Under the pieces are notes generated by a model. The model was not told the origin of the DNA. It ran no database searches and saw only the letters and a list, made by a program, of their open reading frames with translations. A stretch of 63,768 nt of DNA, filler included, from Octopus bimaculoides (Eukaryota), in assembly GCF_001194135.2 (NCBI RefSeq). It is 5 parts of 5 records of this genome, joined end to end, with 100 filler letters (N's around TTAATTAATTAA, not from the genome) between each part and the next. Parts side by side here need not be neighbours in the genome. Positions count along the whole stretch, not along the records: positions 1 to 24,655 come from NC_068986.1; positions 24,756 to 51,603 come from NC_068983.1; positions 51,704 to 54,186 come from NC_068993.1; positions 54,287 to 59,776 come from NC_068984.1; positions 59,877 to 63,768 come from NC_068982.1. One strand, given 5' to 3'. Below are positions 14,738-60,225 of the stretch, piece after piece. Positions within the stretch are counted from its first letter, which is position 1; every line of letters begins with the position of its first letter. The position numbers and the translations under genes were made by a program.

Positions 14738-14787
14738 AGTCTTTCAGCTGTTTCAGGGACATAGGGGATATTATATCATCAGAGACT
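14738..14787 (-). ncRNA. degenerate type-I hammerhead ribozyme motif (probably inactive)
   Basis: Minus strand AGTCT-CTGATGA-...-GAAAC-AGCT-GAA-AGACT: 5-bp helix I intact, but U16.1 reads A and helix II does not pair. Confidence 0.5.
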
Positions 14788-17291
14788 GAGAGATTTAAGC
14801 AGAATGAAATCGTAGAGTTCAATATAAGAAGTTATTTTAAAAAGGCAGAGATATAGGAAGTATAAAAGAAAATATGAGAATAAAAATTAAAATATATGTT
14901 GAATGTTACTGTTGCAGTTCCATTATCCAACGAATGTGCTGTGTAGAACGGGCAAAGAAGCTTCTTGTCTATGTTATGTAAATTCCGATAAGAATTCATC
15001 TTTTTTTAATTATAAATAGATAGTTTGTAGATATTAATTCCATGTGCTGTTCATTCAAATGGTTCTTGTAGTGTATATGAAATTTTGAGAATATATTGGG
15101 TGGAGGACAAAAGCTGGAGAGAAGAGAATAGATAAGTGTGTTAGTCCGATGAAAAAGGAGGAAATTGCTATTAGACAAAAGGATTGGGAGAGAAAAGAAG
15201 AAAGAAAGAGAAAATGAAATTTTTCGGTACTCCAAACAGGACCGATAACATATGAAAACAACCAATGACATTCTACAACACCTACAGACATACAAAAAAC
15301 ACTACAACATTGACCGAAATGCATACAAATGCTTTCCAAATCCATACTTCGTACAATGCACCTTTTACAAAGAAACATTTAGACAAAGTTCCTCATATGA
15401 ATATACATGCGTGCATATGTATATTCATATTTATATACGTAGACGAATATATATATATATATATATATATATATATANNNNNNNNNNNNNNNNNNNNNNN
15501 NNNNNNNNNNNNNNNNNNNNNNNNNNNNNNNNNNNNNNNNNNNNNNNNNNNNNNNNNNNNNNNNNNNNNNNNNNNNNNNNNNNNNNNNNNNNNNNNNNNN
15601 NNNNNNNNNNNNNNNNNNNNNNNNNNNNNNNNNNNNNNNNNNNNNNNNNNNNNNNNNNNNNNNNNNNNNNNNNNNNNNNNNNNNNNNNNNNNNNNNNNNN
15701 NNNNNNNNNNNNNNNNNNNNNNNNNNNNNNNNNNNNNNNNNNNNNNNNNNNNNNNNNNNNNNNNNNNNNNNNNNNNNNNNNNNNNNNNNNNNNNNNNNNN
15801 NNNNNNNNNNNNNNNNNNNNNNNNNNNNNNNNNNNNNNNNNNNNNNNNNNNNNNNNNNNNNNNNNNNNNNNNNNNNNNNNNNNNNNNNNNNNNNNNNNNN
15901 NNNNNNNNNNNNNNNNNNNNNNNNNNNNNNNNNNNNNNNNNNNNNNNNNNNNNNNNNNNNNNNNNNNNNNNNNNNNNNNNNNNNNNNNNNNNNNNNNNNN
16001 NNNNNNNNNNNNNNNNNNNNNTGTGTGTGTGTGTGTGTGTGTGTGTGTGTGTGTGTGTGTGTGTGTGTGTGTGTATGTGTGTGTGTCTATGTATATATAT
16101 GTTTATACTGAATTGGTGCTAAATCTTTCCTAGAACCACGCCAAAATTGCTCAGCCCTGACGTTTCTTTCACAATAAAATCATTCTGAATTAAATTTTAC
16201 ATTAGATTCAGTAGCAAGGAGTTATAAAATATCCTCTCAACATTTTCAAATACAATATGATAAAATAAAACTTGAAAGAACAGCTTCAACTAGATTAATA
16301 TATGTCTTATAAGCCACGCTTCAACACTAGTCAAACTTAAATAACAAATATACAGATGTTAATATATACATACTATCATACATAGAAATTTGATGTAAAA
16401 TAACTAACAGAGCATGCATCAACATTTCATGGCATGTCAAAGACCCAACTCTGTTATATTATAGCAAATAGTTTCATTATATAGTGACAGACAATAGTTG
16501 TATTCGGTAGACTTCATCCTTTACAAATAATAGAATTACTATATATAGAATGCACTAAGGCAGCGACCACAACTTGATAAATAAAAATTTTGTAACAAAA
16601 TACAGTAAAATGAAAAACAAATTTTTTAAAAACAAAACAGAATATTTGTATTATAAAGATTCGCTTTCTAAAGATTTGGGTGGTTAACCCACAATAATCT
16701 AAATGAATAAATTGATATGAGAAAAGAAAGAGAGAGAGAGAAAGAGAAAGAAAAATAATTAGATAAATAAACAAATAAATATAATGAATTATGGAGAGAA
16801 ATGAATAGTGAAAGCGAAAGTGATAGGAGGTTTGGTTTGTTAAGGACAATGGTATTTGTTTTAGTACAGGTATTTAGGTGCATAGCAGAGTGGCCTAAAC
16901 TATTGGAATTTCACGCTCGGTTGATACGGAAGGACGGATAAGTCATCGTATGACCATTCAGAATGGCACCATCGTCCTCCCCGACGCACACCTGCTGCAC
17001 AGTTCATAAGAATTTTCTCAGGTACATTCGTATAAATACATTCATATACTGACAAATCCCACACACACGACGTTGTACTCAGAATATTCATACCAAAATA
17101 GTAAATTCTTAAATGTGGAAGTCTATCATTTGTCGAGGTGATCGAATCAGTTTACATCATTAATTGTGTATGTATACGCACAGACATATTCACACGCATG
17201 CATGCACAGACAATATTCATACATATACACACGTGGCTGGAATATACATCAGTTATATGACTTCACATCCCTTCCTTGTCAGTCTTTATAC

Positions 17292-17676
17292 ATGTTAGCA
17301 CTCCGTCGGTTACGACGACGAGGGTTCCAGTTGATCCGATCAACGGAACAGCCTGCTTGCGAAATCAACGTCCAAGTGGCTGAGCACTCTACAGACACGT
17401 GTACCATTAACATAATTCTCACGGGAAATTCAGCGTGACACACAGTGTGACAAGGCTGACGCTTTGAAATACACGTACAACAGAAACAGGAAGATAGAGT
17501 GAGAAAAAGTTGTGGTGAAAGAGTATAGCAAGGTTCCCCTCCCCCCCTGCTGGAGCCTCGTGGAGTTTTAAGTGTTTTCGCTCAATAAACACTCACAATG
17601 CCCGGTCTGGGAATCGAAACCGCGATCCTACGATCGCGAGTCCGCTGCCCTAACCACTAGGCCATTGCGCCTCCAC
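17292..17676 (-). mobile_element. tRNA-derived SINE family B, full length, 8-bp TSD
   Basis: A box (TGGCCTAGTGG) and B box (GGTTTCGATTCC) on the minus strand; CTTTATAC at 17284-17291 and 17677-17684. Confidence 0.92.
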
Positions 17677-17799
17677 CTTTATACTTACTCTTCACCATTG
17701 CGATTCGTAAATATCTAGAGTGAGGGTGTGCTTATACGCTTGTTTTTCTCAAAAGTCAACCACCAAGTGGAGAACTTACAATGAGGTCTTTGTGATTCC

Positions 17800-17995
17800 A
17801 TAACATTCTATTCTTTCTTTCTTTCTCTCTCTCTCTTCCTCTCTCTTTCTCTCTCTCTCTTCCTCTCTCTTTCTCTCTCTCTCTTCCTTTCTCTTTTTCT
17901 CTCTGTATATGTATATGTGTGTGTGTATGTGTGTGTGATGCGTGTGTGTGTCTGTGTGCGTGCCCGTGTGCGTGTTTGTATGTGTCTGTGTATGA
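17800..17995. repeat. (CT)/(CCT) and (TG)n tracts
   Basis: Direct reading. Confidence 0.9.
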
Positions 17996-57624: not shown

Positions 57625-58075
57625 TATACATATTCAGGAATGATCGGAGACCAATCTGATTGAAATGCATTCTATATATAATTCTATATATAATTTAGAG
57701 CGGTCAAGTGAGTAAAACAAGTAAAAGAATAAAAGAATGAAAGAATATAAATATTGTAAATATATCCAAACTCTAAAGATGAGGTTAATAACTCGGAACA
57801 TTTTAGACTTAAAAGTAACACATATTGAGTATTTCGATATTTAATTCTTATAAACGACATATGAGCATAAATGGACAAAAGTACTTTCGCATAATACCTA
57901 AGATAACAATCTGAATCTGAAAAATAATAATTCTGACACAAAATTCAATCTTGTGAAAAGAAGTGGATAGTATAAGAGCTTTATTTGGTTAGTGATTTTC
58001 AAGGATTTAGATTTCTCTATCTAGCGTATCTTCATACGAATACAATACTTATTCATCGTTTATTATGGTTCTAGG

Positions 58076-58429
58076 GTGGCTAGTGGTTAGGGAAGCGGAC
58101 TCGCAATCGTAGGGTCGTGGTTTCGATTCCCAGACCGGGCGTAATGAGTGTTTATTGAGCGAAAAACACCTAAAGGTCCACGAGGCTCCGGCAGAGAGTG
58201 GCGCCGAACCCTGCTGTACATTTTCACCACAACTTTCTCCCACTCTTTCTTCCTGTTTCTGTTGTACCTGTATTTCAAATCTGTGTCACGCTGAATTCCC
58301 CCGAGAACTACGTTAAGGGTACGCGTGTCTGTGGAGTACTCAGCCAATTGCACGTTCATTTCACGAGCAGGCTGTTCCGTTGATCGGATCAACTTGAACG
58401 CTCGTCAGCGCAACCGACTGAGTGCCACG
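58076..58429 (+). mobile_element. SINE family B, full length, 11-bp TSD
   Basis: A box TGGCTAGTGG, B box GGTTTCGATTCC; ATGGTTCTAGG at 58065-58075 and 58430-58440. Confidence 0.93.
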
Positions 58430-60061
58430 ATGGTTCTAGGAATATTGTTTTATTTTCTTCGACTATGTTATCTGAGTAATTAGTATAAACCGTCTTGTTT
58501 TGATACGCTTTGATAGCTACAAATTGCAACGGAATAATGGACGCCCATTCATGAAAAGATAACACACTATCACATTCACTCGGCGCTTTTTGTCAATGTG
58601 AGAGAAAAAACGATGCAGTTTTCAGCATCACTATCATCCTCATCGTCATCATCATCATCGATGTCGTCATTGTCGTCAGCATTATCACATGATATCATCA
58701 CATGGTATCTATAATTTTTATGCTGCTATGATAACCACGATGATAATGATCAAAACGGTCATCACCAAAACACTGTAGAACACATTATAAAGAATCACAG
58801 AGAATCATCATCTTCATTCTTCTCCTCCTCCTCCTCCTCCTCCTCCTCCTCCTCCTCNNNNNNNNNNNNNNNNNNNNNNNNNNNNNNNNNNNNNNNNNNN
58901 NNNNNNNNNNNNNNNNNNNNNNNNNNNNNNNNNNNNNNNNNNNNNNNNNNNNNNNNNNNNNNNNNNNNNNNNNNNNNNNNNNNNNNNNNNNNNNNNNNNN
59001 NNNNNNNNNNNNNNNNNNNNNNNNNNNNNNNNNNNACCACCACCACCACCACCACCAGCACTACCACCACCAACATCAACACCGCGCGAGAAGTTTCCTT
59101 CAGCTTCTAATTAACTAATCTCACATAACTCTCATGTATTGTATGCATGTGTACATCTACGTACACGTTTGTATGTGTTTGTATAGCGCTTCTTTAAGCG
59201 TGCACTGGTACAAGACAGTACATATGCGTATGCATCAACGTGTGTGTGCACGCGTGTGCGTGTGTGTGTATGTGAGTCTATTGAGGTCTGATTAATTAGC
59301 TTTATCCGTTGCCATCTTGTTTATCTGAATGAGACATCTCAATGTTGTGTGGACATTGAAAGCTTAGTTTCACAATTCCTGCTATGAATATCTTTACCAC
59401 ATTAGCAATGAAACACTGTCCATGCCACGTATTCCTCGTCTTCTCTCTTCACTCTTATTCTTTCGCTTTTTTCTCACACTTACACCTTTTTTCCTTCCTC
59501 ACACTTTCTATCTCCCCCCTCTCTCTCTTTCTCTATCTATCTATATACATACATATATATATATATATGTATATATATATCTTTCTCATTGTCTTTTACA
59601 TTGTTCTCTTGTTCTTTCTCGCTTTCTCTGATTTTCTCACACTCTCTGTATATATGCGTATGTATATACATGATACGTAATGATGTATATAAGATATATA
59701 TAATAAATATACGTTACATAATACATGCACTGCATATTCATTATATAATACATACACACATCTATAGATCGGAAGANNNNNNNNNNNNNNNNNNNNNNNN
59801 NNNNNNNNNNNNNNNNNNNNTTAATTAATTAANNNNNNNNNNNNNNNNNNNNNNNNNNNNNNNNNNNNNNNNNNNNTTCACACTACATACGTCAAGATCA
59901 CCAGCATTCTACCTCCCACACACAGCCCCTCGTTCCCGATCACCGTTTGTTATCTCCCCCTTTCTTAGCTCTCCTGAAATAAGAATTTCTAACTTCCGGT
60001 CAGCCATTGTTATGATCGGCCATTATTATTATGATTGACCGTTGACTGAACACTATTCAAA

Positions 60062-60225
60062 TTTTTTTTTCTCCGTGTTTTTCTCCTTGTCTCCGTATTC
60101 TTTCTGTTGAAGAGCGTAGCTCGAAACGTCAAAGACTTTCCATATTCCCGAGCGTCATACTAATATATACTTTTGTTATTTACACCACCTGTCCTCGTCT
60201 GTTGTTATTATTTGTATATTCTCCC
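60062..60225 (+). mobile_element. short hammerhead-containing repeat, copy 2 (hammerhead at 60099-60135, CUGUUGA core, GUC site at 60130)
   Basis: Near-identical to 29122-29285. Confidence 0.85.

Follow-up and report, generated by a model that had tools for sequence, protein, structure and literature searches.

The 63,768-nucleotide stretch of Octopus bimaculoides DNA analysed here (the window; five parts of assembly GCF_001194135.2, joined end to end) is microsatellite-rich animal DNA with 7130 N, its parts being separated by 100-nt gaps at 24656, 51604, 54187 and 59777; strand orientation across these gaps would depend on how the parts were joined. It carries seven type-I hammerhead ribozyme motifs on the + strand, relics and half motifs on the − strand, and two broken coding remnants of Penelope-like elements (PLEs), the coordinates of which are collected in Table 1. 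The seven motifs are likely 3′-end fragments (pseudo-long terminal repeats, pLTRs) of about five PLE families or their non-autonomous derivatives: dimer-type minimal hammerhead ribozymes (min-HHRs), predicted to be inert as lone copies.

The motifs, named here by the start of their CUGA (19817, 20644, 21792, 25070, 29163, 55158 and 60104), were found across the settings of a hand-written type-I descriptor, which were loosened after the sites were already known. All seven have, as stated in a preliminary description of this DNA, a pairing helix I (of 4-6 bp) and a base other than G at position 17, and they stand far above the background of local dinucleotide shuffles: the strict descriptor gave three matches, against a shuffle mean of 0.025 (maximum 1; 40 shuffles); with one extra base allowed before GAAA there were five, against 0 in 40 shuffles; and with one core mismatch five, against means of 0.4-0.5 (maximum 2-3; 12 shuffles each). 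On the minus strand no setting gave a type-I match anywhere in the window. A search with Rfam, which the preliminary description had proposed as a check, returned nothing at gathering score for the whole window, hammerhead models included; at E ≤ 10 it gave five matches over 19730-25200, none of them a hammerhead, and there is no hammerhead among the 150 of 195 matches listed by E-value, which are microsatellite-driven microRNA noise. Folding z-scores are weak (−0.3 to −1.9 for the three motifs tested).

The seven folds differ in how intact they are. The core CUGANGA...GAAA...UH is present in type-I order at 19817, 20644, 21792, 25070 and 55158; an extra base after A9 and a G10.1-C11.1 pair directly before G12 are both found at 20644, 29163, 55158 and 60104, while 19817 has no extra base. 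The base of helix II is flawed at 21792 and at 25070, and 29163 and 60104 read CUGUUGA, with U in place of A at core position 6 (A6U), which is normally fixed. What was described as seven folds thus comprises only two textbook minimal motifs, 20644 and 55158. Helix III can pair with itself, through an ACGU palindrome at four sites and through 8 of 9 bases at 21792, 10 of 10 at 25070 and 6 of 9 at 19817.

Six different flanking sequences can indeed be told apart, but they represent five lineages and not six, since 20644 is a distant sister of 29163/60104. The likeness of the sisters reaches past the motif, with a local score of 63 where 500 shuffles average 31 and do not exceed 59, and their flanks taken singly are matched by 3 of 500 shuffles upstream and 17 of 500 downstream. 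Two of nine pairs have changed on both sides (A-U/C-G in helix I, U-A/G-C in helix II), 26 of 27 cells pair, and slid-register controls show no two-sided change; as evidence of covariation in helices I and II this is no more than suggestive.

The motifs at 29163 and 60104 belong to twin copies, 99% identical over 135 nt (self-BLAST, as for all repeat pairs within the window) and both ending in (TA)n; they are a variant of the PLE minimal hammerhead and not a standard member. Read depth and variants refer to the 60104 region, on which alone reads were placed, and so to one of the five lineages; variants were listed over 60090-60145 at 80% likeness with a 2% floor, in two DNA runs (1688 and 1305 contigs) and two RNA runs (1935 and 1301 reads). 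Over the 60104 motif the contig depths sum to 2.5-2.8 million, about 40,000-50,000 times the 52-70 seen in unique DNA, and they drop toward the 5′ end from 2.5 to 0.95 million; the family numbers roughly tens of thousands of copies. At this order, and with a genome size of 2.3-2.7 Gb, about one copy is expected per window and two are seen, so that the density of the family is ordinary for the genome. No row with A at 60107 reaches 2% in any of the four runs, and U4A, two bases away, is seen at 2-7%, so that a single change at 60107 was detectable; more distant A6 families, for example that of 20644, would fall outside the 80%-likeness placement. Beyond 60131, 3-4.5% of the RNA reads of either run share one continuation, in which the helix I arm is shortened, perhaps from one well-expressed copy elsewhere. 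The family pattern has no match in metagenome contigs.

Lunse et al. 2017 is reportedly a large survey of PLE hammerhead variants. In the titles and abstract openings searched, a scope outside which that survey (RNA Biol 14:1499) falls, there is no description of an A6U or CUGUUGA hammerhead; 'A6U' is absent from PMC11014351, and no cleavage measurement of A6U was found in the literature searched, as far as which goes the family is a new variant. The corresponding change to C, A6C, is strongly slowed in Mg2+ and rescued by Mn2+ (PMC7151607; PMC3088659).

Both kind and context make it likely that the motifs are PLE tails (pLTR fragments) of a known kind. Their architecture fits the min-HHR consensus (U-rich flank, CUGANGAH, G..C, GAAA, palindrome, UH; Cervera 2014 Fig. 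S3, PMC4209133), and the window does hold the reverse-transcriptase (RT) and endonuclease remnants that had been noticed in it. The RT fragment matches 52 of 118 candidate proteins at E ≤ 0.001 (best 1.6e-35, 70% identity), the best named relatives coming from Octopus bimaculoides and Argonauta hians, and its full-length relatives carry RVT_1 (PF00078) together with GIY-YIG (PF01541). The endonuclease fragment has 2737 matches at E ≤ 0.001 in a HMMER-wide search and none when the search is confined to longer proteins; a 722-residue relative, P0186, has RT motifs, RWK and CxCX5C, the last two of which are described for Hydra clade PLEs (PMC8557442), and the remnant itself likely belongs to that clade by these signatures. 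The two remnants are of distant types, since BLASTP of P0186 against P0007 gives nothing significant (best E 0.047). Inverted arms occur at two sites, 24756-24802/25017-25063 (100% identical) and 54118-54184/55186-55252 (90%), each running into a gap, a layout known from PLEs (PMC4209133, PMC8557442); 5′ truncation, seen in the fall of depth, inverted partial copies and (TA)n flanks are further PLE-type traits. The proposal that the motifs are terminal repeats of PLE or retrozyme families is thus upheld in its PLE half, by the consensus, the remnants, the inverted arms and the (TA)n tracts, and is unsupported in its retrozyme half, none of the motifs lying in a tandem repeat.

Cleavage of the copies as they lie here is a different matter. 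Helix III is unable to close within a single strand at any of the four ACGU sites, and a monomer fold is impossible there; at the other three the predicted share of active monomer is about 9e-4, 4e-4 and 5e-6. A single min-HHR motif showed no cleavage, and the dimer model requires both helix III and matching helix I arms (PMC4209133). The only full match of helices I and III on one strand is that of 29163 with 60104, 31 kb apart in the window and both U6; 20644 pairs with either by 3 bp only. Lone copies are predicted on these grounds to be mostly inert. Pfam found no host exon among 367 open reading frames (ORFs) of at least 48 residues, a search that shorter or Pfam-less exons would escape, its matches being mariner helix-turn-helix (HTH), zf-RVT and two sub-threshold ones in low-complexity sequence. 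In neither of two RNA runs, both from a single study and each read to about 6%, is there a read over the unique stretch 60696-61031, a result that holds for that contig and those samples only. RNA of the A6U family is present in both orientations, with first mates about equal on both strands over repeats. Its depth is flat across 60130, where the preliminary description had proposed to look for a coverage step, and shows no pile-up of ends, in libraries that detect cleaved ends poorly; nor is a back-joint indicative of a circle listed at the 60104 motif, in libraries that would miss many small circles.

These results bear unequally on the possible origins of the motifs. Chance matches in AT-rich repetitive DNA do occur, as in the − strand look-alike at 61655, which falls within mariner HTH coding sequence, and the silence of Rfam and the weak folding scores would agree with them; for the set, however, chance is refuted by 3-5 matches against 0-0.5 in shuffles, which leaves this explanation practically without weight. 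The compensatory changes between sister families also speak against it, as do viral contigs, in which the bare U6 core was matched 35 times and helices I and II were present in 0 of those 35. Non-LTR retrozymes replicating via small circular RNAs have hammerheads of type I, are known from molluscs (PMC7229834) and reportedly descend from PLE pLTRs (bioRxiv 10.64898/2026.07.22.740005), but the motifs here are minimal and not canonical, none lies within any of 102 tandem-repeat rows, the window has no head-to-tail array of 150-450 bp units each with a hammerhead, and no back-joint is listed at the 60104 motif in the RNA reads, whose libraries would miss many small circles, so that retrozymes are very unlikely to be the source. 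No better placed is the idea, also put forward in the preliminary description, that the region is a transcribed intron whose + strand motifs cut host pre-mRNA or release small or circular RNAs. The near-intact motifs do lie on the + strand in 7 of 7 cases (p = 0.016; 6 of 6 by flank, p = 0.03), and helix III is long enough to close in principle at three of them; but the bias vanishes once the minus-strand relics are counted (7/11, p = 0.55), and the missing host exon, the unique stretch without RNA reads, the impossible or improbable monomer folds, the 31 kb between the only full-match partners (both A6U) and the flat RNA over 60130 all speak against it. Derivation from PLEs, which we prefer, has points against it as well: Pfam labels neither the RT nor the endonuclease fragment; GIY-YIG is matched by only 1 of 13 scanned endonuclease relatives, weakly (E 0.0028); none of the seven motifs directly adjoins a recognisable PLE ORF remnant, the nearest on the same strand ending 1.6 kb before 55158 with a gap between; the covariation is equalled by 60 of 500 shuffles and involves 3 sequences only; and summed contig depth, which is not true copy number, gives an order of magnitude only. 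Since no motif adjoins an ORF, the assignment rests on kind and context, not on one intact element.

Under the PLE derivation, the PLE protein would begin at the 3′ end of the element RNA when copying it into AT-rich DNA, and the copies would often be 5′-truncated; such insertion would leave solo motifs at a density ordinary for the genome. Two copies in tandem, as an intact element would have them, would pair by helices III and I and be cut at H17; lone copies, having no pairing partner, would be inert. A6U, carried by the most abundant of the families tested, likely cripples cutting in Mg2+, yet the family reached roughly tens of thousands of copies, and cleavage was therefore likely not needed for its spread; mutants of the Anolis Poseidon hammerhead likewise leave insertion in vitro unaffected (PMC11167929). 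The motif would then be kept as a hitch-hiker, or as a structure recognised by the PLE protein. The alternatives, then, are that the ribozyme was crippled while the family spread and that U6 is active when helped. The latter accepts the PLE origin and has the U6 hammerhead still cut, as part of the life cycle, when helped by dimerisation and PLE protein or by Mn2+; it is unlikely, but well ahead of the intron and the retrozymes. Here the variants speak against a dead motif: N17 is its only frequently changing position (C>U at 39, 27, 24 and 23% and C>A at 0.8, 0.0, 3.2 and 3.3% over the four runs, with no G row), and one subfamily, amounting to 15-18% of the RNA reads, has 6 changes in the 30 bases that follow the motif and no more than 1 in the 37 of the motif itself (Fisher p 0.04; 0.08 when a change found only in the 60104 copy is left out), a combination expected under continued selection for cleavage. 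Moreover, the Anolis PLE hammerhead cuts only with protein (PMC11167929), and Mn2+ rescues A6C (PMC7151607). On the other side, read placement favours motif-like copies and so inflates apparent conservation, the 2-7% subfamily carries a second core change (U4A), every row examined of Cervera 2014 Fig. S3 has A6 (PMC4209133), and RNA neither drops nor piles up ends at 60130. The fuller form of this explanation is slightly more doubtful still: the dimerised and helped CUGUUGA motif of one of the genome's most abundant repeats would cut, selection would maintain it in every subfamily while only N17 drifts, and a core variant at a supposedly fixed position would be at work in tens of thousands of copies.

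Dense solo min-HHRs of PLEs are known and ordinary in such genomes and of modest interest in themselves; the A6U family offers a natural test of the need for hammerhead cleavage in the spread of PLEs. A dead A6U would mean that this family multiplied enormously with no cleavage, and would carry the in vitro result (PMC11167929) over to a genome; an A6U that cuts would show the accepted core consensus to be over-strict and whole families to escape descriptor searches. A ready control exists in the canonical sister, 20644.

The minus-strand sites are degenerate or partial, in agreement with the preliminary description, which did not list the half motif at 60300-60328 (Table 1). The hairpin just after the endonuclease stop (z −2.5, 3 of 200 shuffles) is possibly a decayed hammerhead of the adjoining element. 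Candidate sites at 46537, 58679, 58408, 51821, 10008 and 6868 failed the type-I descriptor, and a suspected RT fragment at 43600-44200 was dropped, being unsupported by Pfam, tblastn and profile searches.

Table 1. Hammerhead motifs, relics and PLE remnants in the window
Feature	Position	Strand	Details
Decayed hammerhead	14738-14787	−	helix I and CUGAUGA kept; A at 16.1; base of helix II lost
Type-I hammerhead, core intact	19813-19899	+	59-nt helix II region; 3-bp helix III; non-palindromic ACC loop; predicted cut after 19895 (GUA)
Textbook minimal hammerhead, canonical sister of A6U family	20640-20674	+	CUGACGA and extra A; 4-bp helix II; ACGU palindrome; predicted cut after 20670 (GUU)
Hammerhead	21786-21847	+	6-bp helix I; near-palindromic helix III; extra A before G12; predicted cut after 21841 (AUU)
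Inverted 47-nt copy of 25017-25063, which lies immediately 5′ of the 25070 motif	24756-24802	−	100% identical; runs into gap
Hammerhead	25066-25123	+	10-nt self-complementary helix III; A.C at 10.1-11.1; predicted cut after 25119 (AUA)
A6U family copy, 5′-truncated	29120-29284	+	between (TA)n tracts; motif 29158-29194; U6 at 29166; N17 at 29189, predicted cut after it (GUC)
Broken PLE reverse-transcriptase fragment	34126-34703	−	YLDD, FLD, thumb; relatives are ORFs with RT and GIY-YIG
Broken PLE linker and C-terminal endonuclease	52696-53585	+	relatives from HMMER search
Hairpin just after endonuclease stop	53580-53644	+	GAAA, short palindrome, UU; no CUGANGA
3′ half of 55158 family	54118-54186	−	90% identical; back to back with 55158; ends at gap
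Textbook minimal hammerhead	55153-55198	+	CUGAUGA and extra A; 6-bp helix II; ACGU palindrome; predicted cut after 55193 (GUU)
A6U family copy, longer	59877-60225	+	5′ end hidden in gap 59777-59876; (AT)n after 3′ end; motif 60099-60135; U6 at 60107; N17 at 60130, predicted cut after it (GUC)
Half motif	60300-60328	−	GAAA, palindrome, UA; inside separate multi-copy repeat
Half motif	63510-63525	−	GAAA, palindrome, UC only; no CUGANGA

The window holds repeats of other kinds. Fragments of mariner transposase HTH (PF17906) lie at 8325-8564 (+) and 61545-61733 (−), the latter holding the chance look-alike, and a zf-RVT fragment at 39916-40098 (−; E 1e-4) is likely a LINE (long interspersed element) remnant. 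Dispersed short repeats of at least three families, 70-85% identical, which we take to be probably short interspersed elements (SINEs), occur at 5232, 17293, 36501 and 58082, with further positions at 10149, 11230, 23813, 24122, 54885 and 57178, and at 8755, 11873, 40847, 51438 and 63613. Another abundant repeat, 60552-60679 and 61077-61300, is split by a unique stretch of about 400 nt; in reads and contigs 60679 is linked to 61077 through a different intervening sequence. Three copies of a G+C-richer 60-nt tandem unit (51932-52111) fall within an ORF without Pfam match (51821-52228, −). Head-to-head telomere-like repeats, (TAACCC)n then (TAGGGT)n, occur internally at 56128-56207, flanked by short inverted matches (55837-56021/56267-56446), and imperfect long palindromes, about 73% self-complementary, at 50554-50702 and 51247-51422 (all by self-BLAST); at 27689-27946, (AAT)n passes directly into (ATT)n, making a long microsatellite hairpin.

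Among known systems the closest are the PLE min-HHRs (PMC4209133), most of which are solo, with many families per genome and opposite-strand pairs 100-700 bp apart. The motifs here share with them the type-I order, a helix I of few pairs, a minimal helix III that is palindromic, the U-rich 5′ flank, multiplicity of families, mostly solo occurrence and close opposite-strand pairs, as well as, at four of the seven, the extra base after A9 and the G10.1-C11.1 pair; unlike them, one family is A6U in nearly all placed copies, whereas the rows examined there contain no U6. Octopus is unmentioned in the two supplementary files of that paper that were searched. The Hydra clade PLEs (Craig et al. 2021, PMC8557442), which carry hammerheads and insert into (TA)n, resemble the relatives of the endonuclease remnant in their RWK and CxCX5C; none of the seven motifs could be tied to that remnant, which likely belongs to the clade. 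As in the Anolis Poseidon element PAc (Frangieh et al. 2024, PMC11167929), no RNA-seq reads end at the cut site; PAc, for which cleavage is unneeded for insertion in vitro, is autonomous, has a hammerhead whose core is intact and has been shown to cleave with the help of protein, whereas the copies here are ORF-less fragments known from sequence. Non-LTR retrozymes (PMC7229834) are likewise non-autonomous, a few hundred bases long and equipped with type-I hammerheads, but form tandem arrays with canonical motifs and circles, in contrast to the dispersed minimal motifs of the window. A natural change at core position 6 is also found in the hammerhead of phage Bcep176 (PMC3088659; PMC7151607), where it is to C, at a single phage locus, and has been assayed (slow in Mg2+, with rescue by Mn2+); in Octopus it is to U, in a dimer-type motif of very high copy number.

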